Counted from the stretch's first letter, positions 1 through 14,282 are shown. The stretch is DNA of 64,000 nt from Candidatus Thorarchaeota archaeon (GCA_048884965.1 JBHLQH010000009.1:1-64000); one strand, 5' to 3'. Notes: generated by a model not told the origin, from the sequence alone. Numbers and translations: made by a program.

Positions 1-18
1 ATCTCGGCCGGTCCACCA
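1..18 (+). repeat. tRNA-Ala 3' end (copy 1; could be the end of the intact tRNA gene, truncated by window)
   Basis: ATCTCGGCCGGTCCACCA = T-stem 3' strand, acceptor 3' strand CCGGTCC (U70 of the Ala G3:U70 pair), A73 and CCA. Confidence 0.85.
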
Positions 19-636
19 CTACTTCTCAAACACCAGACAGTAAAAGTGATTGTACCCAAATAGCTCAAAGCATGATTCATCCTCTTCCTGCCAACAAATG
101 ATGATCTCCTTCTCAAATCTAAGGACTTCTGAGAGCGATCGAGCCATATCCCATGCCAAGAGAGTCAGAGGTTGCTCGTCATTGGCTCCTAGATTGTATA
201 CTCCCACGATTGCTTTTCCTCCTGGTTTTAGGAGTACACCAATCATCCTGAATATCCTTTGAAGTTCCTCGAGATAGTCTTGGTAGGTTCCATCCTCCTT
301 GAATGCTGAAAGAGGATTTTTTGTTTCATCGCTATACATGAAGGTTGGAGAGGTGTACACGAAATCCAACTGAGGAATTTGATACTCGTTTAGTCTTCGT
401 GAGTCCCCATGAATGATATTATCCTTCATTTTAAGATGTGAATGCGCAACGTTGTATCGCTCCTCGTCAATCTCAATGCCAAACGGTATCCGTCCTAGTT
501 TCTCTGCAATAAAGAGAGTCGACCCGAAACCTGCGAATGGGTCAAAGACAGTATCACCTGGTTTTGTGAAGTTTTCAATGAAGTGCTCAACAAATGCTAA
601 CTCACTTTTCTTGGACAATAGAATATAACTCTTCAA
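19..636 (-). CDS. DNA N4-C/N6-A methyltransferase (N6_N4_Mtase-like)
   Basis: TKPGDTVFDPFAGFGST (SAM-binding motif I), GIEID, DFVYTSPTF (SPPY-like motif IV). Start moved to TTG at 636 because the track start at 717 lies inside the tRNA repeat. Confidence 0.8.
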   Translation of the reverse strand: MKSYILLSKKSELAFVEHFIENFTKPGDTVFDPFAGFGSTLFIAEKLGRIPFGIEIDEERYNVAHSHLKMKDNIIHGDSRRLNEYQIPQLDFVYTSPTFMYSDETKNPLSAFKEDGTYQDYLEELQRIFRMIGVLLKPGGKAIVGVYNLGANDEQPLTLLAWDMARSLSEVLRFEKEIIICWQEEDESCFELFGYNHFYCLVFEK

Positions 637-691
637 ACAATCCCAGCCTCTACACCTTGAAGCCGCACTACGAAATAAATTATCTGTATGC

Positions 692-735
692 TGGCAGGGA
701 GGAGGTCCCGAGTTCACATCTCGGCCGGTCCATCA
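692..735 (+). repeat. tRNA-Ala(GGC) 3' half, intron-less form (copy 2)
   Basis: TGGCAgGGAGGAGGTCCCGAGTTCACATCTCGGCCGGTCCAtCA. Confidence 0.9.
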
Positions 736-817
736 TCTTTTCCAATGTTGGTTTGAGATGGCTTGCGCCAAAGTCGCTTCTTTTAACAAACAATCGACCC
801 GAGAACAGCGATGTATA

Positions 818-1837
818 ATGACCCTGTCTCAGAGGACTCCACTCGTTCTGGGTTTGATAGCAATTCTAACTATAGGTCTAACTTTATCATTCGTATTTCT
901 CTCAATCCCTCCGACTGACAATAATCCTACGCATACAGAAATACGGATTGACCTGATTGGAGCGATCGATACCGGCGGCGCAGGTTTACGAGTTCATGTA
1001 GAAGGAAATCTTGCTTTTGTTATTGATACTGGAACAGAGGGTACCTATGGTCTGATCATTGTCAACATTGCCGATCCCATGCAACCTACAATTGTAGGCA
1101 CTTACCATGCTGGTGGACTCCCCTTTGCAATAGACTCTGAAGGTGATATCGTGTATATCGCAGACCAAATTGAAGGTCTTATAATTCTCAATATATCTGA
1201 TGTGGCAAATCCAACTCCCATACCCGGATTTACCGGAAGTAGATCCTATGACATAGAATTAATTGATGATTTGCTGTATCTCGCTGATGATGAGGAAGGT
1301 CTGGTTATATTGAATGCCAGTAATCCGAGTGCACCAGAATTCATTTCGAACTATGGTCAAAGATGCATCCATTTGGCAATTGAGGGTGATATTGCATATT
1401 CGACAATTCAGGGACTATCACTAATCGACATTAGTGACTCAATGCACCCATCACTCCTTTCCAACAGAGAGGACGGTACAGGATTTTGGGATCCATCTGT
1501 ATCTAACGGTATTCTCTACCTTGCAAATCACAATGGAGGTGTGGGCGAGCTCCAAGTGTATGATGTATCAGATCCTTACAATATTGAGAAGATATCAGAA
1601 TTCGACTCAGAAGGAAATTTCCAGTCTTTCGATGTACAAGGCTCCGTATTATACGCAGTAGATTTCGAAATTGGACTGTATCTTCTAGATATACGCAATC
1701 CTTCCTCTCCCTCTGAAATCGCGCTTTTCGATGGTGGTGGCAGACCTTGGGATGTAAAGGTATGTGGAGAGTATATCTATCTAGTTGGCTCCGAAGGTTT
1801 GCAAATCCTTCAGATAACAGAAGTAGCTATCTTTTGA
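818..1837 (+). CDS. Membrane-anchored LVIVD-repeat (beta-propeller) protein
   Basis: N-terminal hydrophobic helix, then repeated 'YxAD..GLxIxNISDxxNP' units. Likely start MTLSQR at 818 (track start 758). Confidence 0.85.
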   Translation: MTLSQRTPLVLGLIAILTIGLTLSFVFLSIPPTDNNPTHTEIRIDLIGAIDTGGAGLRVHVEGNLAFVIDTGTEGTYGLIIVNIADPMQPTIVGTYHAGGLPFAIDSEGDIVYIADQIEGLIILNISDVANPTPIPGFTGSRSYDIELIDDLLYLADDEEGLVILNASNPSAPEFISNYGQRCIHLAIEGDIAYSTIQGLSLIDISDSMHPSLLSNREDGTGFWDPSVSNGILYLANHNGGVGELQVYDVSDPYNIEKISEFDSEGNFQSFDVQGSVLYAVDFEIGLYLLDIRNPSSPSEIALFDGGGRPWDVKVCGEYIYLVGSEGLQILQITEVAIF

Positions 1838-1944
1838 AAGAGATGATTCTGGGGTTGACATCTTCTTCACAGGGATTATTGGTGTCATAGCAACCGCTTT
1901 TGAATCTTGAAATTGCATATTCTAGATTATTCCGATCATTGAAT

Positions 1945-1986
1945 GCATGGAGGAGGTCCCGAGTTCACATCTCGGCCGGTCCACCA
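1945..1986 (+). repeat. tRNA-Ala(GGC) 3' half, intron-less form (copy 3)
   Basis: GCATGGAGGAGGTCCCGAGTTCACATCTCGGCCGGTCCACCA followed by TTTCTTCCTC. Confidence 0.95.
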
Positions 1987-2068
1987 TTTCTTCCTCTGTT
2001 TCTCCTCGACTTATACTGTTATTAGGAAGAAGATACTGTAGTTCTGATGAAAGTTCGGGGGATAGGAT

Positions 2069-2365
2069 GTGTCCGAAGGTAAATCATTAACAATAGATGT
2101 TCCGAGTCCAAGTCAGAAACGGCAGGTCCAATTGGATTTGCTTGATGTTGGCTTTAGAGTTTCTTGGAGTACTGGCGGTAGACCCTTCCAGCAAGCATTT
2201 CGTGTTGATTTACAGATGGGTTGGATTACGCGAATTCCGACCAAAGATGCTGAAACGAAAGAGAAGCGGCGGGATGATGTTGGGATTCCGATTTGGCTTT
2301 ATAGATACATTTTGGGACATGATTTAGAGGATCTCCAGAAGGCAATACGGAAGCAAGGTAAATAG
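2069..2365 (+). CDS. Hypothetical protein (98 aa)
   Basis: ORF fills the interval between repeat copies 3 and 4; GGGGGA upstream of the GTG; no recognisable motif. Confidence 0.5.
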   Translation: MSEGKSLTIDVPSPSQKRQVQLDLLDVGFRVSWSTGGRPFQQAFRVDLQMGWITRIPTKDAETKEKRRDDVGIPIWLYRYILGHDLEDLQKAIRKQGK

Positions 2366-2372
2366 ATCGTTT

Positions 2373-2451
2373 CTTCCTTGGCACTTGCGACACACTTCGG
2401 GTGCATCCAAAGTGGAGGAGGTCTTGAGTTCGAGTTTCAGCCGGTCCATCA
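2373..2451 (+). repeat. tRNA-Ala(GGC) anticodon arm plus 3' half WITH a 37/38 intron (copy 4)
   Basis: CTTCC-TTGGCA-[CTTGCGACACACTTCGGGTGCATCCAAAG]-T-GGAGG-AGGTC...CCGGTCCATCA. TTGG (32-35) can pair with intron CCAA between two 3-nt bulges, giving a BHB motif. Confidence 0.85.
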
Positions 2452-2589
2452 TTCATTCTTTTCTTCATAAATTCGAATTGATTATGATTAAAGATACCTT
2501 TCTGAAAACAGAGAATAACAGCTGAAAAAGTTAGTCTATTATATATTTCAAGTCAATGTTATCCTAATCATCGTAAGGAGTGGTAATTA

Positions 2590-3759
2590 GTGGTCGAAGG
2601 AATTCGAAAGCAAATTTTGGCATTAATGATTGTTCTTGGAATTTTCCTTGGGATCATTGTTGTCGGAACATCTTCATACATCATGTTTAATGAAATCGAG
2701 GGAAATCCAATTTCAAATACTATATTCAAAGACCTTTCTAAATTTGGGACGATGCCAATAATTGACATGTCTGGTATGGCTTCAAACAATGAATCCTATT
2801 TCATCGATTCAAACCTTTGGAATATGCCTCTCATTTCATCATCACAAGCAAGAGAAGCAGCATATGAATTTCTGCAAAGCATTTTTAATGAGAATCAGCT
2901 TGAATCGGTTTCTGTTCAATGGCAACATTTGGTTGGAGATAATCCAACTTGGGTCATTGCCATTGAAGGATACTATATTGTCACCCTGCTATTCGTCAGT
3001 GCCATTACAGGAGAATTGATTGGATGGAATCTCTCTTCCCTTTCCCTTGACCCACCCGAATCTTATTATGAAAATGGCTCCTATATCTCAGCAAGTGTTG
3101 CTGAGGAATGTGTTTTTGATTTCTTGGCACTGCATAACTACTCAATCCCAGATGGTGCGCGATATTTGGGAGTGAATGAATATCCCTCTGATTTGAATAA
3201 TTACTACGCAATATTCCGCCATTATGAAGGTCAGTTTCCGGTTGGGCTTTATCCCCATGATTCCTCTATCAATCCAGATTACTCAAGTGAAGGTATTATT
3301 CTTCGAATAGACAAGAGGACAGGATTTATCACTCAATTTGGATATCGCTGGACGAAGATTGACCCTCCACCACCAATAGGAATCCTTCCTGAATGGGAAG
3401 CGGGGCGGATAGCTGGAGCGTTCTACGAACCTGAAAACATATCCCTCATAGATGCACAGATTCTCATTGCTCCAGTTCTAGGATTAGAGTCATCTGATGG
3501 ATCACCACAAATTCACCTAATATGGCATCTCGCAATCAATAGAGATTCGCGGTTGGTCTATGTGTATATTGATGCATATACGGGAGAAGTACTAGACGAG
3601 CAAAGAACCAATGGTAATGCACCTGCAATAATCAATACAAATGATTCACCTACTCTTTTTCCTGTAGTTATTACAAGTCTCTCGATTGGGGTAACAGTAG
3701 CTGTATCGTCAAGTTATATGATTCGTAAGAGATATCTGTTTGATTCTGGCGAAGTATAA
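2590..3759 (+). CDS. Membrane-anchored extracellular protein with YcdB/PepSY-like domains
   Basis: N- and C-terminal TM helices; repeated 'VSAITGE', 'IDKRTG', 'YIDAYTGEVL' motifs. Confidence 0.65.
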   Translation: MVEGIRKQILALMIVLGIFLGIIVVGTSSYIMFNEIEGNPISNTIFKDLSKFGTMPIIDMSGMASNNESYFIDSNLWNMPLISSSQAREAAYEFLQSIFNENQLESVSVQWQHLVGDNPTWVIAIEGYYIVTLLFVSAITGELIGWNLSSLSLDPPESYYENGSYISASVAEECVFDFLALHNYSIPDGARYLGVNEYPSDLNNYYAIFRHYEGQFPVGLYPHDSSINPDYSSEGIILRIDKRTGFITQFGYRWTKIDPPPPIGILPEWEAGRIAGAFYEPENISLIDAQILIAPVLGLESSDGSPQIHLIWHLAINRDSRLVYVYIDAYTGEVLDEQRTNGNAPAIINTNDSPTLFPVVITSLSIGVTVAVSSSYMIRKRYLFDSGEV

Positions 3760-4249
3760 TCCCAGATACTATGAATATTTAGTGGAGCTAGGACAAAGCA
3801 TGGCAGATCAAGAGGATTCAAAGAACGACATTGAGCTAGATTTAGCAGGCCGGACTCTACGAGTATACTGGTACATGCTACAAAATAAGGAACCTCTGGG
3901 TCGTCTCGAAATCCAAAGAGGAACAAAACTATCAAGCGCCAGTCTTGCAGAGTATCATCTGAGAAAACTCATTGGAATGGGTCTTGTAGAGAAGAATATC
4001 TATGGTGAATATGTAATTAGTAGGACTGTACAAGTTGGAGTAATGCGTTTCTATATGATTTTTAGGAGTAATATGATACCTCGTTTTCTTCTGTATATCT
4101 CATTCTATATATCTATACTAATTGCTCTTCTGGTATTCTTCAACAATATACCCCAATCAATTATGTTTCTTATTGTTACGATTCTTGCCTTTGGAATCAT
4201 TTCATCTCTCATCGAAAGTGTAATTTTATGGAAAACATCTCCTACCTAA
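3740..4249 (+). CDS. Winged-HTH transcriptional regulator with two C-terminal TM helices
   Basis: GRTLRVYWYML...LSSASLAEYHLRKLIGMGLVEK wHTH, then two hydrophobic segments; start may be ATG 3800. Confidence 0.75.
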   Translation: MILAKYNPRYYEYLVELGQSMADQEDSKNDIELDLAGRTLRVYWYMLQNKEPLGRLEIQRGTKLSSASLAEYHLRKLIGMGLVEKNIYGEYVISRTVQVGVMRFYMIFRSNMIPRFLLYISFYISILIALLVFFNNIPQSIMFLIVTILAFGIISSLIESVILWKTSPT

Positions 4250-4363
4250 TTTACTTCTATCATCCTAAAATTGATTGAATCTAATTTGCAGATCCAATGA
4301 ATGAAAAAATCTTATTAGATAGTTCATCTGTTACAAAGCCACCTCGTGGTGGAGGGATGAACT

Positions 4364-6151
4364 GTGATTAGAAATAGAGCTAGGAAACGAAACTATGCGC
4401 AGAATGCCATTCTGATAGTATTATTGTTTGTCACTTCTACAATGATGTATGTAGGATTTGCATCATCTTATAGTACCTTATTGCATCATGATGAAGGCAA
4501 CGATGAATTGAACGAATATGCTGCGTCTATTGCCAAAGTTGTTATGGACTCCACAGAAAATCTCAGATTGGAGGATGTTTATGATACGACTGATCCGCAG
4601 ACTAGTAGCACTGTAAGATGTATGTCTTGGACTCTAACAGGTGCGGATTTGATAGAACTTCGCATTGATTTGGAAACTGGTTTACTCGTTAGCTATATCG
4701 ATACAACAAATCATCCAGACACTCTATACTATATCTCTGAAATATCAGATCAGAATGCATTAGAAAGAGCATACACTTTCTTTGAAACTCTCTCACAATT
4801 GTGTCTGTTCTCTTGGCCGCAAAACTGTGAATATGCTGGTGTACTGAGTCTTGAGTCTTACTGGACTTTTGTATGGCATCATATTATTGATGGAATTAAG
4901 GTAGTTGATGATTCACTTAGAATCAGAATAGACCCTTACACAGGCAATGTGCGGTACCTTCAGATACAATGGAGCAACTACGATTCAATTTCATCAATGT
5001 ATGTAAATCCAGATGTGACTTCTAATGTCGTGTCTGAAATCATCAGTACAAACGATGTCATAATTGAACAATCAGGTCCATTCTTATTCAAGAATGAGGA
5101 CACGCGACAATACGATTTGAGTTGGAATTTCGATGTTAAAGTTGACTCACAGCTGATTGCTTCAACTTATGTGAGTACAAGCACTGGTTCATTTCTGTCT
5201 ATTGACACAACAAATAGCTACTACGGTGAATTCGTATTAGCACAGGGTCGTTCTGGTCTTACAGGTACTGGTTCTTTGGACCCAGCTCATACCGCAGCTC
5301 TAGATTGTGCTGGATATCGTCTTGAGAGCGATAACTATCACAAGGATACTTGGGATAACACAGTTATGCTCTCAGAGATGGTGAGCTATTTAGATAATGC
5401 AAATATCATCATTTTTGAAGGACATGGGTATGGAGGTTCTGGCGTTGGGTCATGGATGACCATTTATGGATATGATTTCGGGGGGGAAGACGTACCAGAA
5501 GATATGTCCCAGGCTGAGATTTTCTATACCGCTTCATGCGAAGGAGGATGGACAACTCAATATCCGCAGTATGAAAACAAATTCATTGCAAATATGGCTC
5601 TTAATGCTGGTGTAAAGGCTTACCATGGTTTTTTGGGTTCGCCAAAAACCGAGCCAGAAAGTGACTACTGTAAATATTTTTGGGCTGCAGCAGCAAATGG
5701 TAAGACTTTTGCAACTTGTCAGGAGTATGCCGGAAGCTATGTTAGCAACGTAACACTTGGTAATGTACCCTCAGCATTATATGGCGCCAGAAGTAACTCA
5801 CTTTCAAAGGTAGATGTAAGCTACAACCAAATCCTAGGATATGTTCATGTAAATGACCATCTGTCTTTTGACAATGAGCCTTGCTGGCAAGTTGATTCCG
5901 ATCAACTCAGATTTTATTCCTATGAACTTGCATATTACAGCATTTATGTTGATCCCGAACGCAGCGACTTTGATGTTGCCTTTAAGGTCTACAACAAATA
6001 CTATCAACTGATCGCAACTGTAAATTCTCATGGATCTGGTGGTACTGAATCATATTGTTTCTCAGGCGGCTCAGGATTCTATTATATCAAAATCTATATC
6101 GCATCTTCATACGGCGGAATATATGACCTAGATGTGTTCGTTTCTTCCTAA
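4364..6151 (+). CDS. Secreted protein: PepSY-like N-terminus, clan CD (caspase/gingipain-fold) domain, C-terminal PPC-like domain
   Basis: Signal/TM at N-terminus; IDLETG and IDPYTG motifs; IIIFEGHG...FYTASC His/Cys dyad pattern; DFDVAFKVY...GGTE...GFYYIKI PPC-like end. Confidence 0.6.
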   Translation: MIRNRARKRNYAQNAILIVLLFVTSTMMYVGFASSYSTLLHHDEGNDELNEYAASIAKVVMDSTENLRLEDVYDTTDPQTSSTVRCMSWTLTGADLIELRIDLETGLLVSYIDTTNHPDTLYYISEISDQNALERAYTFFETLSQLCLFSWPQNCEYAGVLSLESYWTFVWHHIIDGIKVVDDSLRIRIDPYTGNVRYLQIQWSNYDSISSMYVNPDVTSNVVSEIISTNDVIIEQSGPFLFKNEDTRQYDLSWNFDVKVDSQLIASTYVSTSTGSFLSIDTTNSYYGEFVLAQGRSGLTGTGSLDPAHTAALDCAGYRLESDNYHKDTWDNTVMLSEMVSYLDNANIIIFEGHGYGGSGVGSWMTIYGYDFGGEDVPEDMSQAEIFYTASCEGGWTTQYPQYENKFIANMALNAGVKAYHGFLGSPKTEPESDYCKYFWAAAANGKTFATCQEYAGSYVSNVTLGNVPSALYGARSNSLSKVDVSYNQILGYVHVNDHLSFDNEPCWQVDSDQLRFYSYELAYYSIYVDPERSDFDVAFKVYNKYYQLIATVNSHGSGGTESYCFSGGSGFYYIKIYIASSYGGIYDLDVFVSS

Positions 6152-6161
6152 ACATGCAGAA

Positions 6162-6187
6162 GGATGGTGAATTTTCGTTCACCATCC
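6162..6187 (+). terminator. Hairpin downstream of 4364..6151
   Basis: GGATGGTGAA-TTTTCG-TTCACCATCC, perfect 10-bp stem 10 nt after the stop. Confidence 0.6.
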
Positions 6188-6239
6188 CTCCCAATCCAAT
6201 TCAGCACTCCATTTAGATACCTAATAGGAAACTAGTGAA

Positions 6240-7007
6240 ATGAAATCAACCATGATTCCCAAAGGCTTACAAGAACTTGGCATTCTCTCGCTTCTCAATG
6301 AACTTGAATATAATAGCAAATCTGTGTATCTTACAGGTTCTTGGGCACGAGGGACTAATACTTCTCTGAGCGACATTGACCTTGATATCTTGGCATGCGA
6401 AGATATACCAAAGGAAATCATTCTAGGAACAATCACACCCTATCAATCCAATAAAATTGTTATTGATGCGAAGATTTTCACACCTATCGAGTTTACTCAG
6501 CTCCAGAAGGGGCCCTCACATTTCTTTTTTTGGACTCGCTTCCAAGATGGACTTCATATTAGTGGAGATTCTCTCTCTCTGAAACATGATTATGAACAAA
6601 CTCGCCGCTTCATCGAGGTTAGCATGGATAGAATGAACGAAGCAATTTCACTTGTTCATTCTGGTAGATATCTGGCAACGGTGCTATTCCTAATGTATGA
6701 GTCTTTATGTGGGTCTTACTTTTTGGAATCCTACCTCTTAAATGGTAAGAGGATTCAATACATAAAAGAGGAGTATTTGAGAAATCACTGTGGGAATCTT
6801 TTCTCTCTTTGTCGACAAAACTACTATACGCATGTAAGAGCACAGTTCCAAGATTCTCTCGATTGGCCAATAAGAATCCGTTTTCGCAGTGATCTGAAAA
6901 TGAAGAAGGATGCTTTTCAAACACTTAAGGATGTAATATATCAGGTCGACAATCATGTCATGAATGTCTATAATAGTGCCCTCAGGAAGATTGATAGTAT
7001 TGTATAG
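6240..7007 (+). CDS. Pol-beta-type nucleotidyltransferase (MNT) domain protein with helical, possibly HEPN-like, C-terminus
   Basis: VYLTGSWARG...SDIDL signature. Confidence 0.7.
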   Translation: MKSTMIPKGLQELGILSLLNELEYNSKSVYLTGSWARGTNTSLSDIDLDILACEDIPKEIILGTITPYQSNKIVIDAKIFTPIEFTQLQKGPSHFFFWTRFQDGLHISGDSLSLKHDYEQTRRFIEVSMDRMNEAISLVHSGRYLATVLFLMYESLCGSYFLESYLLNGKRIQYIKEEYLRNHCGNLFSLCRQNYYTHVRAQFQDSLDWPIRIRFRSDLKMKKDAFQTLKDVIYQVDNHVMNVYNSALRKIDSIV

Positions 7008-7022
7008 TTTCATATGTTAGAA

Positions 7023-7087
7023 TCGACGCACTTCGCGTGCGACCAAAGTGGAGGAGGTCCCGAGTTCACATCTCGGCCGGTCCACCA
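7023..7087 (+). repeat. tRNA-Ala 3' half with 3' part of the intron (copy 5)
   Basis: TCGACGCACTTCGCGTGCGACCAAAG|TGGAGGAGGTCCCGAGTTCACATCTCGGCCGGTCCACCA; intron hairpin CGCAC/GTGCG is homologous to copy 4. Confidence 0.92.
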
Positions 7088-7105
7088 CTTCTTCATAAAG
7101 ATTCT

Positions 7106-8074
7106 TTACTTTGGAATCAATTGTTTCTCTTTTAGTTTCAGATAAGCTGCCCGACAGGACTCCACATCATGAGAAAAGAGATACTGGGCAAATTCAAGAT
7201 AGTCGAAGCCCTCGACTTCTTCGATGAATCCCGCCTTTTGCATCCCATATTGAGAAAGCCCCCACATCGCTGTGAAAAGCATCAACATGAATTTCATTCC
7301 TGAGAGCCTTATCCACGAGTCATTACTGACTTCAGTGAAGTAGCATTGCAGCATGAATTCCTCTAATTCAGGTGGAATGGGACCAATACTATCGTGAGTA
7401 TATACGAGTGTCGCCAGGTCGTAGTAGATGTCTCCCATTCCTGCGAACTCCCAATCAATTATCGTGATTTTATGCTGTTCATCTGAGTATAGATAGTTCA
7501 CGGCAACGAGGTCATTATGGCAGAACCGTAGCCAATCCGATTGATCCTTTCTTTGATCCTCTTCTATCTCTCTCATCGTATCCAATAGAGCTTCGAAATC
7601 ATAAGGTAAAGGGATATCATATTCCTTCGCGGTTCGAGTATAGGCTTCGACACGATTGAAGGGTGAGAACCTACCTTCAATAGCTGGGAGAGAATGCAAT
7701 TGCTTGACTGTCTGTGTCAATAGGCGTATGTTCTCCGGCCTTCGATACTCATCATGCGTCCAATGGCGTCCATCTATCCAACGAGTTACAAGATGCCCTT
7801 CTGGTTTACTGAAATAGATTACCTCTGGTCCAATCCCTACACTGGAAGCTACTTGTAATGCCTCATATTCGAAATCACGATTGATACCAAGTTTCTCAGC
7901 ATTCTCTCTACTGATTCGCAAAACATATTGATTCTTACCTGCTGTTATCTGATAATTCGCATTAGTAAGACCATCGATTTTTTCCACAATTAGTTCTTTG
8001 ACACCCTTCAATGCTGGTATCCTATCAGTAATTGATTGTATCTCGGGATTCATTCTTCCTTTCAGATATCCCAA
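7106..8074 (-). CDS. Choline/ethanolamine kinase-like phosphotransferase (APH superfamily)
   Basis: GLTNANY, YVLRI, FCHNDL..N (Brenner motif), IIDWEFAGMGD...DLA; start may be ATG 8053. Confidence 0.9.
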   Translation of the reverse strand: MGYLKGRMNPEIQSITDRIPALKGVKELIVEKIDGLTNANYQITAGKNQYVLRISRENAEKLGINRDFEYEALQVASSVGIGPEVIYFSKPEGHLVTRWIDGRHWTHDEYRRPENIRLLTQTVKQLHSLPAIEGRFSPFNRVEAYTRTAKEYDIPLPYDFEALLDTMREIEEDQRKDQSDWLRFCHNDLVAVNYLYSDEQHKITIIDWEFAGMGDIYYDLATLVYTHDSIGPIPPELEEFMLQCYFTEVSNDSWIRLSGMKFMLMLFTAMWGLSQYGMQKAGFIEEVEGFDYLEFAQYLFSHDVESCRAAYLKLKEKQLIPK

Positions 8075-8117
8075 AATCGGTGGTTTTAAAGCTGTGTTTC
8101 AACGTCAAATCACATTC

Positions 8118-8159
8118 GTATGGAGGAGGTCCCTAGTTCACATCTCAGCCGGTCCACCA
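8118..8159 (+). repeat. tRNA-Ala 3' half, intron-less form (copy 6)
   Basis: GtATGGAGGAGGTCCCtAGTTCACATCTCaGCCGGTCCACCA then TTATTCTTCTC. Confidence 0.9.
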
Positions 8160-8259
8160 TTATTCTTCTCATCCGTAGGTCTAACTACAGCATGGTCTAG
8201 GGATCAGACTTCGAAATTCGACTGGAAGATTTAACTACCACGTTTCTAAGAACTAATCG

Positions 8260-9153
8260 ATGATTGAAATCAAGCAAATTGGAGAGCCTAAGGTTCTTGA
8301 CGATAATTCCAATGAAGCAAACTCATACACCTTTCATGCCAGTATGTCCACAATGAGAGCGCGATTCAGCAACTCCTATGAGGGTTACCATGGGAATCCT
8401 GTCTGGGACTTGACAGTCTATGCAGATAGGCTGATTGAGCGGAACATTGAGCCTCTTTGGGAAGGTCTTGAGGAACATGCACAGTGCTTTCAACTTCCGA
8501 TGAACTATATTCCATTTGGACATGATGGAGGCACTTTCTGCTATAATCTTCTTGAAAGTGGGACCCACATCTTTGATTTCGTTGAAGATACACGGACTAC
8601 GTCGGAGGTCCGAGGAATCTGGTCTATCCTATGCGCACCAGAGTCTCCTATGATATTGATAGGAGGTACCAGTAAAGCCACACGTCAAAAGGGCGTCTAC
8701 ATCATTGACTACTCAGGAAAAGTAGTTCGCAGAATCGAGGTCCTAGATGATACGCCTGATGCCTACCTTTCCTGGCTGATGTACAAACCTACAATTCTAT
8801 CTATCAACAAGAAATCCAGTGCACATAAGACATGGTTATCTGAGATAGATATTGAAACTGATGAGATTCTTCAGAAAAGAGCGATTGATCCCCAAGATAT
8901 CCTTCCTTATGATGATCTCTCATATTCACAGTATCAAGAAAAAAGTGGCGCTCTTAGGACTGAAACTGGCTATGCACTTGATGGATTACTCAGGAATAAA
9001 TGGTATGATTACAGGTATAATTATGGTCGCAAGACACTCCGGTTGAAAATATACCACCCACCTATTGAGTACCTTCTATCAGCGGACCGTCCTGAAACCA
9101 GCAACGTTCAAGGAATCCTATACGAATATACCTTCAAGATAGAGTTCCTCTAA
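8260..9153 (+). CDS. Hypothetical protein (297 aa)
   Basis: Long ORF filling the interval between copies 6 and 7; no motif recognised. Confidence 0.6.
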   Translation: MIEIKQIGEPKVLDDNSNEANSYTFHASMSTMRARFSNSYEGYHGNPVWDLTVYADRLIERNIEPLWEGLEEHAQCFQLPMNYIPFGHDGGTFCYNLLESGTHIFDFVEDTRTTSEVRGIWSILCAPESPMILIGGTSKATRQKGVYIIDYSGKVVRRIEVLDDTPDAYLSWLMYKPTILSINKKSSAHKTWLSEIDIETDEILQKRAIDPQDILPYDDLSYSQYQEKSGALRTETGYALDGLLRNKWYDYRYNYGRKTLRLKIYHPPIEYLLSADRPETSNVQGILYEYTFKIEFL

Positions 9154-9231
9154 TGCAGGAACACGACCTTGGATTGTGATCGTCCCACGGAAACAATCAG
9201 ATATATCTATAGCAATAATCCTGAGTCTGTG

Positions 9232-9257
9232 GGAGGTCCCGAGTTCACATCTCGGCC
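9232..9257 (+). repeat. Truncated tRNA-Ala fragment (variable loop and T-arm only; copy 7)
   Basis: GGAGGTCCCGAGTTCACATCTCGGCC, exact 26-nt match to the other copies. Confidence 0.85.
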
Positions 9258-9389
9258 AAATCTCTCTTGCACATCAATGGCGAAGATGTGGTGGTATATA
9301 TTCACTGGAATCTATCTAATAATTCTCTCAATCTTCATGCTCGTTGGAATTACATATACGTGATTAAATGATGTGTCTATGAGCATGAA

Positions 9390-11435
9390 TCAATCGGTAA
9401 CAGCTTTCTGCTTGATCTGCCTGTAGTAAGCAAATCCAAGGTAGATTCCTATTGCTGTCCCGATACATATAGCCACGTCTAAAGATGGACCTAGACTAGT
9501 AGTAGAAACCACTACAAGAACAGAGTCACTGGCTTCATTCCAGCAAGTATCACGAATCACAATAGTAAAGATGTAGATTCCTGGTATGAGTCCGGTTAGA
9601 TTTATCGTAATCCTACTTTCATTCCAGATACCGGATTGCACAACAAAACCGTTGCAGAGGATCGTGTAATTTAGAGGATGAGCATCATTAGCATTCCATT
9701 CTATAACTTGGTCTAACTCGTTCAGACTGCAGTAAATGTTCTCAGGAGTATCTATTGTTGGTAGAACTGTATCTGCTTTCATCGGGAAATGATCGATACC
9801 ATCACCATGTCCATCAGTTACGTAATATCCCACACCAGAATAATCTCCCCAGTAGTTACCTAGAGAACCGTTGTCCCACCAATTCATGCCCTCAATATTT
9901 ACAGCAGACGAAAAGAGATCATCTACAGCATTTGATCTGATATTCCAAGCTATCGTGTTGTTGTAAACAAGATTGTAGTCACTATCATGATCGAGCTTGA
10001 TTCCCCAATTGTGATTGTTTGTGATGAGATTGCTGAAGATTGTGTTATTGCTGGATTCGCTAAATGTGATACCGTAGCCATAAGTTTCGTTTCCAATCAC
10101 CTTGTTATTATAGATTAAGATAGAATTAGAGGAAAGACAATACAAACCAACATTATTTCCCATAAATTCAGAATTCATAAATATCAAATACTCAGAATAC
10201 GTGATACGTACGGCCATGTAATTCCATCTAAAGGATGCGTCCTGAATCAAACAATCGACTGAATGTTCAATGCATAAAGCTTCCTCTGCATCTGTGATAT
10301 GGATATCTGTAAGAGTTCCTCTGGAAGTACCTACAATATACAGAGGATATCTACCTCCTGAAATTGAGATGTTCTCTAGTTCTATATCATCCGCCCATAG
10401 TAAGTATATACCTCTCCATGATATATTGTTCATGGTGAGATTCCTGATACTTAGTTTCGAAACTTCTTGACATTTCACTCCATTAGTGCACATCTCGAAG
10501 TATGTATCATGTATTTGGATATCCTCTGACTGATAGATGTCGATTGCAGAGTCAGTTCTGATAAAAACACCACTTGAGAGAACAATCTCGGAACAGTTGA
10601 ACAACAGAATGTACCCATAGTCATTCATATTCACGGCTTTCGACTTTTGTTCAATGAACACTCCAAGTGGTTTCCCATTGACTGTAGTATTAGTGAGTGT
10701 ATGATTGAAATCCTCTTTCCTAGATCCTACTATTTCGATGCTGTCATTGACAAAAGCATTGTTACTTATCACTGCATTTTCAGAGGTAATCATATAGCAA
10801 CCAAATTCATTATCACGAATTACACAGCATTGTATTGTAATATTATCACATGTGTTGATGAAAATTCCGTTGCGATTTTCAAATAATGTAGCATTTTCGA
10901 TTCTTGTTTCATCAGAAGAATGGAGAAATATTCCATATGAGTTGTTGTGAATTTTGCAATTCATGATGGTAGTCTTGTCTTGCAACACATCTATTGCTCG
11001 TAATGAATGTCCATACAATTCTGTATTGTTAATAACCGAATTTGGAGAATTGCGGAGATATACCCCAGTGGAACTGGATATCAATAGGCATCCATTGATT
11101 ACAAAATGCAAACTCACAGATTCGATGGATATACAACACGATTCATCCTCAATTCGATAATTACTGATGTAGAAAGGATTGCTAGCCGATCCATTTCCTA
11201 ACCACCCTTCATTACCAGCTTGTTCAACGATATCTGTGTCTGATGTAATTACAATTGCGTCATGCAGGATTTGACTCGAAATAAAGGATTCAGTTACAAT
11301 AGAGTTATCGATGTTATCATGAGTTGATTGAAACGGATCAAATTCAACCAAAGGTGTAATAGAAAATAGGACTATTAGCAATATAATTACTGTAGGGATC
11401 CAACAATTCCCTCCTCCATTGATATTCAAATCCAC
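9390..11435 (-). CDS. NosD/CASH right-handed beta-helix surface protein with C-terminal Ig-like domain and TM anchor
   Basis: GNGSASNPFYI, many 'N..GI.L..S.N..I.NN' coils, GNYWGDYSG...D.FP, C-terminal TM plus basic tail. Confidence 0.85.
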   Translation of the reverse strand: MDLNINGGGNCWIPTVIILLIVLFSITPLVEFDPFQSTHDNIDNSIVTESFISSQILHDAIVITSDTDIVEQAGNEGWLGNGSASNPFYISNYRIEDESCCISIESVSLHFVINGCLLISSSTGVYLRNSPNSVINNTELYGHSLRAIDVLQDKTTIMNCKIHNNSYGIFLHSSDETRIENATLFENRNGIFINTCDNITIQCCVIRDNEFGCYMITSENAVISNNAFVNDSIEIVGSRKEDFNHTLTNTTVNGKPLGVFIEQKSKAVNMNDYGYILLFNCSEIVLSSGVFIRTDSAIDIYQSEDIQIHDTYFEMCTNGVKCQEVSKLSIRNLTMNNISWRGIYLLWADDIELENISISGGRYPLYIVGTSRGTLTDIHITDAEEALCIEHSVDCLIQDASFRWNYMAVRITYSEYLIFMNSEFMGNNVGLYCLSSNSILIYNNKVIGNETYGYGITFSESSNNTIFSNLITNNHNWGIKLDHDSDYNLVYNNTIAWNIRSNAVDDLFSSAVNIEGMNWWDNGSLGNYWGDYSGVGYYVTDGHGDGIDHFPMKADTVLPTIDTPENIYCSLNELDQVIEWNANDAHPLNYTILCNGFVVQSGIWNESRITINLTGLIPGIYIFTIVIRDTCWNEASDSVLVVVSTTSLGPSLDVAICIGTAIGIYLGFAYYRQIKQKAVTD

Positions 11436-11514
11436 TCTCTCCGAAATTCGTTTACTTTGAAAGTTCTTAAATTTATACTACAGTAGTTGAACATGGACAC
11501 ATGCTAATTTCATT

Positions 11515-11554
11515 TCCTTGGCATGGAGGAAGTCCCGAGTTCAAATCTCAGCCG
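11515..11554 (+). repeat. tRNA-Ala(GGC) anticodon arm and T-arm, intron-less form, decayed 3' end (copy 8)
   Basis: TTCC-TTGGCAT-GGAGG-AaGTC-CCGAG-TTCAAAT-CTCaG-CCG; the 7-nt anticodon loop with GGC identifies Ala. Confidence 0.88.
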
Positions 11555-11567
11555 ATTCAGATCCATC

Positions 11568-12802: not shown

Positions 12803-12850
12803 CATGGAGAAGTATGGGAGTCCAAATTTCAAGTCCGGATCAGGCGACCA
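12803..12850 (+). repeat. Decayed tRNA-Ala fragment fused to the 3' tip of a different tRNA (C1:G72/A73, Tyr-like)
   Basis: CATGGAGaAG.....GAGTcCAAATtTC resembles the Ala repeat. 12828-12850 TTCAAGT-CCGGA-TCAGGCG-A-CCA has exact tRNA 7+5+7+1+3 spacing. Confidence 0.5.
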
Positions 12851-12920
12851 CTACTTTGTTCTTCCACTAATCGTAGGCTCTCTAATTCATAACCAAATCT
12901 ACATTGAGCGAATTTCATTC

Positions 12921-13448: not shown

Positions 13449-13619
13449 AAGCTGGGGTATGCTATACGCATTAGGAAAAGGAGATCGACTAAGTCTTCCA
13501 TTCTGAGTTCAGAGATATCATTTGAAATACTGGGAGTACGCCAATGCAGGTTTGGATGGAATAAAGGGGGTTTCTATCAAAGAAATCTCAAGTGTCCACC
13601 TTAGTTCATCATCTGACGA

Positions 13620-14282
13620 CTAGGGATAGCACAATTCCCAATCTGAATGATATGAATGGACTAGACTCATCAACTCAAGATATGCATCCTCTGAGAAGAA
13701 TGGTCTAGGGCAAGTTGCTTCTCCATCGTAGACTGCGAAGTGTATATGTGCCCCGCCTCCTATAGCAAGAAAATGACCGATCGTGTCCCCCTTGGCTACC
13801 CAATCACCTACCTCGATTTCAAGCATTTCTATTTGTCGGTCTGCATCTGTTGAGTTCGTAGTCCATGGTTCAAAGACATACCCGATCTGAATTGACTCAT
13901 TGAATCTGATCGAAACATGAATCATGTATATATTCTCAGTTGGACCTGTATCAGTCCAATGAATCTCCTCCACAAGTCCCGGTGCAGCGGCTATCACTTC
14001 AGAGTCATTCACAAATGCAAAATCGAGCCCGTTATGAGTAGCCCCCCAAGGACAGTTTGTACTCTCGCTATATCCGCCATTCCAATTTAGGATGTCAGAT
14101 TGGTTCGTGTAGATGATGCCCATGTAGTTCAGGTTAGCAGAATCATAACGCCCTTCGTTGTCAAATGTATTCTCTCCATTTGGCGGATCTGGATTAATCG
14201 GAACGCCTCCAAATTGGATATACAAAACAACCCCAATGCAAATTATGACCAGTAATATGATACAGCTAGTTCTTCTTCGCAT
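13620..14282 (-). CDS. Membrane-anchored M23-family peptidase-like protein
   Basis: N-terminal TM; HNGLD, VIAAAPGLV, VGDWVAKGDTIG, AHIHF. Confidence 0.8.
   Translation of the reverse strand: MRRRTSCIILLVIICIGVVLYIQFGGVPINPDPPNGENTFDNEGRYDSANLNYMGIIYTNQSDILNWNGGYSESTNCPWGATHNGLDFAFVNDSEVIAAAPGLVEEIHWTDTGPTENIYMIHVSIRFNESIQIGYVFEPWTTNSTDADRQIEMLEIEVGDWVAKGDTIGHFLAIGGGAHIHFAVYDGEATCPRPFFSEDAYLELMSLVHSYHSDWELCYP

Follow-up and report, generated by a model that had tools for sequence, protein, structure and literature searches.

Intron-containing and intron-less fragments of one tRNA-Ala(GGC) gene stand side by side in a cassette array of a Thorarchaeota (Asgard) archaeon, and we think it probable that these scars are cassette-borne att relics of donor tRNA-Ala(GGC) alleles, each preserving the intron state of its donor. 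The coexistence of both forms, as given in a preliminary description of this DNA, was borne out by copies 4 and 5 (with intron) versus copies 8, 2, 3 and, weakly, 6 (without), and its suggestion that donor alleles differ in intron status agrees with the intact genes of 20 genomes of the same family, of which 11 have the intron and 9 lack it.

The tRNA-Ala(GGC) cassette array

The window, by which we mean the whole 64,000-nt stretch analysed (assembly G000), contains eight plus strand copies of the 3' part of tRNA-Ala(GGC), beginning with the end of the intact gene and continuing with seven 3' fragments that alternate with cassettes, as follows.

1-18, plus strand: copy 1, 3' end of the intact tRNA-Ala(GGC) gene, assigned from a 77-nt contig overlap and gene anatomy
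19-690, minus strand: cassette A, DNA methyltransferase gene (N6_N4_Mtase, Pfam)
691-735, plus strand: copy 2, spliced-type scar, CTGGCA directly joined to GGGAGG of the 3' exon
736-1944, plus strand: cassette B, LVIVD-repeat beta-propeller protein gene, homologue in the G005 array
1945-1986, plus strand: copy 3, spliced-type scar, GCA then TGGAGG
1987-2372, plus strand: cassette C, 98-aa ORF at 2069-2365, without Pfam family
2373-2451, plus strand: copy 4, intron-type scar, E 1.6e-16 to the pre-tRNA
2452-7023, plus strand: cassette D, four genes (PepSY protein, with a homologue in the G002 array; weak wHTH; 595-aa protein; nucleotidyltransferase)
7024-7087, plus strand: copy 5, intron-type scar, last 25 intron nt and 3' exon
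7088-8117, minus strand: cassette E, APH/choline-kinase-type phosphotransferase gene
8118-8159, plus strand: copy 6, weak spliced-type scar, GTA then TGGAGG (one mismatch)
8160-9228, plus strand: cassette F, 297-aa ORF without Pfam family, homologue in the G003 array
9232-9257, plus strand: copy 7, truncated scar that begins within the exon and has no acceptor end, uninformative on the junction
9258-11512, minus strand: cassette G, 681-aa beta-helix/NosD protein gene
11513-11559, plus strand: copy 8, spliced-type scar, whole intron-less anticodon arm, decayed 3' end
13572-13600, plus strand: decayed scar end and trailer, left of the M23-peptidase cassette
13620-14282, minus strand: M23-peptidase cassette, which also adjoins scars in the G020 and G024 arrays

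The intron-less junction is most extensive in copy 8, in which TTTCC TTGGCA is joined directly to TGGAGG with nine contiguous matches upstream; this copy, together with the two reductase genes downstream of it, has its syntenic counterpart in the G003 array, at the last scar there. Homology in copy 3 begins at the anticodon-loop GCA, copy 2 has one junction mismatch (G at nt 38), and copy 6 has a decayed T stem. In copy 4, the 5' strand and loop of the anticodon arm (stem CTTCC, loop TTGGCA; 2373-2383) are followed by a 29-nt intron variant (2384-2412), which sits between TTGGCA and TGGAGG, and by a 39-nt 3' exon (2413-2451) with a T arm decayed by transitions. The stop codon of the cassette C ORF overlaps a D-stem-like AGATCG at 2364-2369, just ahead of this copy. 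Copy 5 and the resident gene share 98% identity across 64 nt (E 1.1e-25), and the 3' exon of copy 5 differs from that gene solely by a C at nt 58 of the T-loop. Five G000 scars, including copies 2, 3, 5 and 6, have C at this position, a near-universal A that the resident gene retains. Pfam assigned only cargo functions to the cassette ORFs.

The resident gene carries the intron found in two scars

The window opens within the intact gene, of which window 1-18 is the last 18 nt. The remaining part lies at L001:4806-4942 on contig C91, and the end of this contig overlaps window 1-77 exactly (77 nt). Genes for a methyltransferase-like membrane protein, a NosD-like protein and unknowns lie upstream of the tRNA. 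The resident gene has two introns, one of ~30 nt in the D-loop and one of 29 nt at 37/38, and L001:4806-4942 reads as tRNA-Ala(GGC) when both are removed. The 37/38 insert of the resident gene is identical to that of copy 5 across all 25 nt kept there and matches that of copy 4 at 23/29 nt. Since the resident gene has the same intron, the insert of copies 4 and 5 is, on sequence comparison, a real intron at 37/38. The canonical 37/38 position of a 29-nt insert, as previously proposed for copy 4, is thus found in the resident gene as well, and the similarity to a genuine tRNA-Ala intron extends to the intact gene of G020, which has an intron of the same family.

The minimum-energy fold of the resident anticodon arm with its intron consists of a stem, a 4-bp TTGG:CCAA helix, a 3-nt 3' bulge and a 4-nt 5' bulge, a predicted relaxed form of the BHB. 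A BHB-type fold like that of the resident gene is also predicted in six relatives. For copy 4 a BHB can be drawn, but the predicted minimum-energy fold differs.

Intron states differ among relatives and among scars

We observed intron polymorphism both in intact genes and in arrays. The genomes without the 37/38 intron include G005, a member of the same genus, and G014, whose intron-less allele has an identical 3' exon. Arrays with both scar types recur in six genomes (G000, G002, G003, G005, G009 and G024), irrespective of the intron state of the resident gene. Junction matches in the scars exceed chance: 33 scars in the arrays of G000 and its relatives keep nt 38-40, and directly upstream of these nucleotides 15/33 have at least 4/6 matches to TTGGCA and 10/33 have at least 5/6 matches to CCAAAR (random-hexamer rates, 4% and 0.9%, respectively).

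The copy 4 intron family, besides its occurrence in the intact G020 gene, is found in scars of G003, G009 and G024, and the copy 4 intron agrees with copies from other genera at 18-20 of 23 variable nt, compared to 17 for G000's own gene. Unrelated intron families occur among the scars of one array. Among resident genes, one intron family is found on two different 5' halves (G000 and G020), and within one genus the same 5' half carries unrelated intron families in different genomes.

Cassettes are reshuffled and one crossover maps to the T-loop

Cassettes, mostly of a single gene, are reordered between relatives. The G009 and G024 arrays have cassettes in common (80-93% nt identity), in a different order, and comparison of the scar to the right of one of these, X1, located the exchange: identity between the two genomes persists through the first three T-loop bases, past which the scar matches the version that accompanies the right-hand neighbour, its trailer included. 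This clean mapping is of one junction, with a short scar, in a genus other than that of G000. The switch lies ~18 nt 3' of the intron site, and since it falls within the T-loop, the intron or spliced junction, all of it 5' of the T-loop, belongs to the left cassette. Scar repeat lengths are very unequal (20 to ~90 nt), and many scars consist of just the last ~20 nt, from the T-loop on; the obligatory core must therefore lie 3' of the intron site. The pairing of T-stem strands did not favour a T-loop crossover, as strands within one scar paired at 4.34/5, compared to 4.11 when rejoined as the presumed attP and 3.71 for random combinations.

Cassette C ties scar type to cassette. It was found in only 2/87 genomes (G000 and, as a homologue, G009:C9), and in both the next scar has the same start, the same D-stem remnant and the same intron family, although the resident gene of G009 lacks the intron family of this scar.

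Profile searches of the G000 assembly with PF00589, PF16795 and PF00239 found no tyrosine or serine recombinase, and PF00589 likewise matched nothing on the array-bearing contigs of five relatives. We also found no IntI next to the anchor.

Origin of the two scar types

In the explanation that we prefer, the tRNA-Ala(GGC) gene would be the anchor of the array, and small units, mostly of one gene, would be inserted successively by site-specific recombination, with strand exchange in or just after the T-loop. Each repeat would be a hybrid, whose 5' part (the T-stem 5' strand, variable loop and anticodon-stem 3' strand, to which long repeats add the anticodon loop with or without intron) moves with the left cassette, and whose last ~20 nt and pyrimidine-rich trailer move with the right cassette. 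The 5' parts, unneeded for rebuilding the gene, would be decaying relics of the allele that was once the source of the cassette's attachment site. If lineages differ in the 37/38 intron and cassettes move between them, both relic types would come to be adjacent, and the resident gene would retain its own intron through each insertion. We infer a common crossover for all cassettes, an origin of long relics in whole donor genes, and a hypothetical recombinase that acts in trans.

The crossover bears on the earlier proposal that integration toggles the intron of the host tRNA. Since the mapped exchange is 3' of the intron, normal insertion leaves the resident intron untouched; thus, ordinary integration should not toggle it, and the proposal in its original form finds no support. 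In the broader account in which toggling would occur, each scar would once have been the 3' portion of the resident gene, severed from it by a crossover at the 5' limit of the scar, in the anticodon loop or the intron; every incoming element would bring a replacement 3' part, intron-bearing or intron-less, and the array would be a time series of resident states that flipped between the two. Repeats of tRNA fragments are ordinarily read in this way (abstract of PMC4383910; PMC8371274), and Sugahara et al. (PMC3293823) proposed intron gain via an intron-bearing attP. It also draws support from the many spliced-type scars that start within the anticodon loop, a classic crossover site, from the mixing of canonical-intron families with different 5' halves among resident genes, and from G006, in which a 5' half ends exactly at nt 37, 18 nt ahead of a complete second gene. 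Moreover, the intron family of the intron-type scars in G002 and in G000 is that of the host gene itself, as would also be expected of displaced host fragments or of gene conversion. We nevertheless consider this account rather unlikely, given the mapped switch in the T-loop and the many scars that hold the last ~20 nt alone. It demands many crossover points, some at arbitrary sites in a non-conserved intron, and five successive working genes with C58, which is easily explained if that position was never part of a working gene. The resident intron is that of copy 5 although two spliced-type scars stand between them, so two losses followed by a gain of the identical form would be required, and the cassette C scar recurs in G009, whose resident gene lacks such an intron. 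What the data hint at is a weaker form, an occasional exchange of an intron-plus-3' module, because resident genes show canonical-intron families in free combination with different 5' halves.

Explanations that do without donor alleles fare worse. Scars might all have begun as one type and changed in place, as introns were lost or spread by precise deletion or by gene conversion within the array; the C58 shared by five G000 scars and absent from the arrays of relatives suggests some homogenisation of this kind, and copy 5 matches the resident gene at 45/46 nt. We regard this as improbable, as precise 29-nt deletions at exon borders would be needed repeatedly in six genomes, unrelated intron families occur within one array's scars, and scar type tracks cassette C across genera. 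It is very improbable that repeats of several populations were mis-joined: the MAG is in 99 contigs with 7% contamination and a contig breaks exactly in the repeat, but arrays of the same kind, with cassettes in common, are found on long contigs in at least eight further genomes, and the 130-kb window contig has ordinary archaeal genes beyond the array. Least credible of all, to the point of near exclusion, is the suggestion of the preliminary description that intron-less scars were reverse-transcribed from spliced tRNA and built into cassette boundaries. The sole point for it is that the junction of copies 8, 2 and 3 is the spliced sequence; intron-less genomic alleles, which had been named beforehand as its refutation, are common in relatives with the same exon sequence (9/20, e.g. 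G014), an RVT_1 search of the assembly found no reverse transcriptase, and a processed template is not required because the spliced-type scars all stop short of the intron site in the D-loop.

Relation to known systems

Sublocation classes of tRNA-gene-targeting integrative elements were reportedly set out by Williams in 2002, and archaeal integrons are said to have been reported in 2022. Like integrons, the array has one-gene cassettes that each end in a recombination site, a shuffled order and insertion at a fixed anchor; unlike them, it has no detected IntI, its site is a tRNA 3' fragment rather than an attC hairpin, and its cassettes lie in both orientations.

Islands built by tyrosine integrases through tandem accretion (for archaeal cases, see the review PMC8371274) likewise have an intact tRNA gene at one end and units bounded by direct repeats of its 3' part, and likewise grow by reuse of one site; as in those islands, the exchange here would be at a symmetric tRNA loop, the T-loop. 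In contrast, the units described here are 0.4-4.6 kb and hold mostly single cargo genes, no integrase was found in the assembly, and the repeats extend far 5' of the crossover, intron included. Tycheposons and their satellites in Prochlorococcus (bioRxiv 10.1101/2020.12.28.424599) also include cargo-only units, partial tRNA repeats and variable islands behind tRNA genes, but they are bacterial, without tRNA introns, and have a recombinase-bearing family that mobilises the satellites, whereas we identified no matching autonomous element for the array.

Sugahara et al. 2012 (PMC3293823) presented an intron-containing attP as a vector of a tRNA intron, that of Caldiarchaeum tRNA-Thr. Their model resembles ours in that a tRNA intron travels on a mobile attachment sequence, fragments lie beside the resident gene, and close lineages differ in intron state. 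In their model, however, the intron enters the resident gene, whereas here the crossover mapped 3' of the intron, which remains in the scar; moreover, both intron states occur here side by side in one array, and do so across several genera. In Thaumarchaeota, Krupovic et al. 2019 (PMC6563490), in the portion cited here, counted intron-containing tRNA genes as integration targets in 10/39 cases; those elements are integrase-bearing and inserted singly or in pairs, and that portion describes no coexisting att relics with and without intron.

Implications for tRNA intron turnover

We offer only tentatively, as a doubtful possibility, that long scars are a reservoir by way of which the resident tRNA-Ala(GGC) gene can gain, lose or swap its canonical intron. 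If that gene recombined with a long scar within the conserved anticodon arm, part of the array would collapse and the gene would take on the scar's intron state. If so, mobile cassettes would be vectors of tRNA intron turnover in Thorarchaeota, which would explain both the one intron family on two 5' halves and the unrelated families on one 5' half.

The array is relevant, too, to the long-standing view that introns protect tRNA genes from integrating elements, as the two-intron gene described here is the busiest insertion site of its neighbourhood. With a T-loop crossover the intron is no barrier to such integration: it would give no protection against this system, because the exchange point is beyond its reach. 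The relics may further be used as barcodes, in that intron family and 5' limit would identify the origin of a cassette's attachment site, and as such they point to cassette traffic between genera with differing resident intron states. These side-by-side records of intron-plus and intron-minus alleles may thus allow the gain and loss of archaeal tRNA introns, and a possible contribution of mobile DNA to them, to be tested on Asgard population data.

Both intron states in one array of tRNA-Ala(GGC) relics

The window covers the opening 64 kb of contig C9 in a 4.09-Mb assembly of 99 contigs (genome G000). By repeat finding and direct reading, we found the 3' part of one tRNA eight times in positions 1-11559, always on the + strand, with neighbouring copies spaced 0.4-4.6 kb apart. 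Decayed tRNA-like remnants lie beyond copy 8, and thus the array reaches at least 14.3 kb:

1-18, + strand, copy 1, end of the intact resident gene
691-735, + strand, copy 2
1945-1986, + strand, copy 3
2373-2451, + strand, copy 4
7024-7087, + strand, copy 5
8118-8159, + strand, copy 6
9232-9257, + strand, copy 7
11513-11559, + strand, copy 8
12805-12865, decayed tRNA-like remnant
13572-13600, decayed tRNA-like remnant

The stretches between copies hold ordinary cargo: a DNA methyltransferase, an LVIVD propeller, a 98-aa ORF, a four-gene unit including PepSY and nucleotidyltransferase proteins, a kinase, a 297-aa ORF and a NosD-like beta-helix protein. No recombinase was found among these genes with Pfam.

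Copies 2-8, which we call scars, differ at the canonical 37/38 intron position. In copy 4, a 29-nt insert lies between the anticodon stem and loop and the exon, and agrees with the resident intron at 23 of 29 positions. Copy 5 retains the final 25 intron nucleotides, identical to those of the resident gene, followed by the exon with one difference. Copy 8 keeps a whole, intron-less anticodon arm, and the sequence immediately 5' of the exon is CTGGCA in copy 2, GCA in copy 3 and GTA in copy 6. When this array was pooled with those of relatives, 33 scars retained nt 38-40; directly upstream of these, at least four of six positions matched TTGGCA in 15 scars (4% of random hexamers), and at least five of six matched CCAAAR in 10 (0.9% of random hexamers). 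Thus, the preliminary description was correct that intron-type and spliced-type scars coexist in one array, as was its numbering of the copies.

The resident gene carries two introns

ARAGORN called no tRNA-Ala within the window. A 5-kb contig, C91, ends in 77 nt that match window 1-77 exactly, and the intact gene therefore occupies 4806-4942 of the C91 locus (L001) and continues into window 1-18. Its 5' piece of 21 nt is followed by an insert of ~30 nt in the D-loop, then by 18 nt that lead up to TTGGCA, a second insert of 29 nt at nt 37/38, and finally a 3' exon of 39 nt with CCA at its end. With both inserts taken out, ARAGORN called tRNA-Ala(GGC); its call on the unspliced gene, a tRNA-Thr with one long intron, was overturned by this removal and by hand reading, and an Rfam search of C91 did not pick up the two-intron gene. 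The full precursor folds as a cloverleaf with two intron hairpins (z = -3.3), and the minimum-energy fold of the anticodon arm with its intron is a relaxed bulge-helix-bulge. The D-loop insert is a second, non-canonical intron (~30 nt; L001:4826-4856, on C91 just left of the window), which is kept in the relatives G001, G002 and G004 with 67-77% identity and a constant loop; the D-arm variant of G005, G006, G010, G020 and G024 is without it.

The 37/38 intron is polymorphic in the family

We scored intron presence in relatives by a precursor search of 41 genomes followed by reading of the loci; all genomes compared are metagenome-assembled. The 37/38 intron of intact tRNA-Ala(GGC) genes proved polymorphic inside the family:

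Present: G000, G001, G002, G003, G004, G006, G012, G017, G018, G019, G020
Absent: G005 (same genus as G000), G007, G009, G010, G014, G016, G021, G022, G024

The 3' exon of G014, which has no canonical intron, is identical to that of G000. With 11 intact genes bearing the intron and 9 without it, the proposal that cassettes came from donors whose tRNA-Ala alleles differ in intron status is supported. A step templated by spliced RNA or cDNA, which the same description had raised and had itself considered superfluous should intron-less alleles be common in relatives, is unnecessary, and no reverse transcriptase (RVT_1) match was found anywhere in the G000 assembly.

The same kind of array stands behind tRNA-Ala(GGC) in at least eight genomes. 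Intron-type and spliced-type scars lie side by side in those of G000, G002, G003, G005, G009 and G024, irrespective of the resident intron. An M23-peptidase cassette (window 13620-14282) is found again in the arrays of G020 and G024, in all three genomes with a conserved scar end and pyrimidine-rich trailer on its left side; its right-hand scars in G000 are decayed beyond junction typing. In G024, the large unit that comes first after the tRNA gene (L033:10014-15287) is 93% identical to a matching 3.5-kb block in G009 (contig C21). These units encode a HerA/TraG-like ATPase of 852 aa and a protein of 904 aa without a Pfam family; Pfam detected no recombinase in them.

Intron sequences sort into families. 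The intact gene of G020, a genome of another genus, has the family of the G000 gene and of copies 4 and 5, which occurs too in scars of G001, G003, G009 and G024; other families are carried by the intact genes of the same-genus genomes G001, G002, G003, G004 and G006. The copy 4 intron matches copies from other genera at 18-20 of 23 variable positions, versus 17 of 23 for the intron of its own resident gene. We also noted that copy 4 (window 2431-2445) and a G024 scar from a different genus (contig C140, array position 22421) have the same three T-arm substitutions (TTCGAGT TTCAG), beside non-homologous cassettes; independent decay is an unlikely source of these common substitutions.

Scar junctions and the position of the crossover

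We considered whether a scar junction is a property of the cassette to its left or a displaced piece of a former resident gene. The G009 (contig C21) and G024 arrays have four cassettes in common (80-93% nucleotide identity) in a different order. To the right of one of these, X1, the scars of the two genomes are identical through the first three T-loop bases and diverge thereafter; beyond that point, each genome matches, trailer included, the scar that stands before its own right-hand neighbour in the other genome. This switch points to an exchange in or just after the T-loop, and the many scars that begin at the T-loop and keep just the final ~20 nt fit such a position. The placement comes mainly from this one clean junction. 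At 94% identity, contig C9 of G009 and G024 have a block in common that runs precisely to the CCA of the scar on its right and, in G009, has no left scar; it is compatible with this model but gives no position for the crossover.

Copy 4 likewise points to ownership by the left cassette. Among 87 genomes searched, only G009 has a homologue of its left-hand cassette C, and the scar after that homologue has the same start point, D-stem remnant and intron family as copy 4; the G009 resident gene is without this intron. The T-loop of the resident gene is TTCAAAT, with the near-universal A at nt 58; in five scars (window 714-720, 1965-1971, 7066-7072, 8138-8144 and 9245-9251) it reads TTCACAT, with C at this position, which argues against scars being the ends of former working genes, as does the identity of the resident intron to that of copy 5 despite the spliced-type copies 2 and 3 between them. 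The TTCACAT variant was not seen in relatives' arrays, which suggests that it spread inside the G000 array or is a mark separating scars from the working gene. Global T-stem pairing, compared within scars and between rejoined neighbours, was neutral between the two alternatives. For copy 5 there is no second context, since homologues of the adjacent nucleotidyltransferase were distant (at most 32% identity in 87 genomes searched); metagenome scans gave no close relatives of this protein or of the cassette C protein.

On the best reading, a putative recombinase supplied in trans would have inserted the cassettes site-specifically at the T-loop. In the 95.7%-complete G000 assembly, searches for tyrosine and serine recombinases gave no hit (no match to Phage_integrase, archaeal Phage_integr_3 or Resolvase), nor was a XerA-type recombinase picked up there. 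Likewise, the array contigs of five relatives had no tyrosine recombinase, and four of these five genomes encode one elsewhere. Long 5' relics may, as one option, be whole donor genes that decayed from the 5' side. Homogenisation inside the array (C58) probably contributes, as does a local origin of certain attachment sites (copy 5; G002 scars with the host intron family). When viral contigs were scanned, the tRNA 3' end matched only a jumbo-phage tRNA-Ala(TGC), which has no bearing on the array.

If exchange takes place in the T-loop, the suggested toggling of the resident intron by integration is unexpected, and the intron would be unable to block such insertions.

Outside the window, G000 has two dense tRNA clusters, 19 tRNAs in 2.4 kb (C4:160883-163299) and four tRNA-Leu with one tRNA-Phe in 0.43 kb (C9:108216-108648), whose genes are mostly intron-less, unlike most dispersed G000 tRNA genes; they may derive from a mobile element, a virus or contamination.

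Apparent intron exchange among resident genes

Genomes of the same genus have identical 5' exons and D-loop introns that are 67-77% alike, while their canonical introns come from unrelated families; conversely, G000 and G020 have a single canonical intron family on two different 5' halves. From these sequence comparisons, the intron together with the 3' part appears to be a module swapped among resident genes over longer time scales, and recombination between a resident gene and a long scar might be the route.

Two loci in relatives appear rearranged. On contig C624 of G006 (L043, minus strand, ~1075-1400), a promoter and 5' half with the D-loop intron end exactly at nt 37, and 18 nt farther on is a complete tRNA-Ala(GGC) with the other type of D-arm and a canonical intron, an arrangement suggestive of a replaced resident gene and in line with exchange of the module. 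Contig C166 of G001 (L036, minus strand, 61-131 and 4700-4850) has an inverted conserved tRNA promoter with a chimeric 5' fragment and an inverted intron-type scar, with an intact gene on the same contig, which suggests inversions between tRNA copies.

Relation to known systems

It is established that tRNA genes serve as integration sites, with three sublocations and with tandem accretion (PMC8371274), and an intron-bearing attP has been proposed as an intron vector for Caldiarchaeum (PMC3293823). Elements that integrate into intron-containing tRNA genes are documented as well (PMC6563490), and cargo-only units with partial tRNAs as their bounds are reported from Prochlorococcus (bioRxiv 10.1101/2020.12.28.424599). 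What is new here is the presence of both intron states together in the attachment relics of one array, the recurrence of such mixed arrays across genera, and the placement of the scar junction on the cassette side of the crossover.
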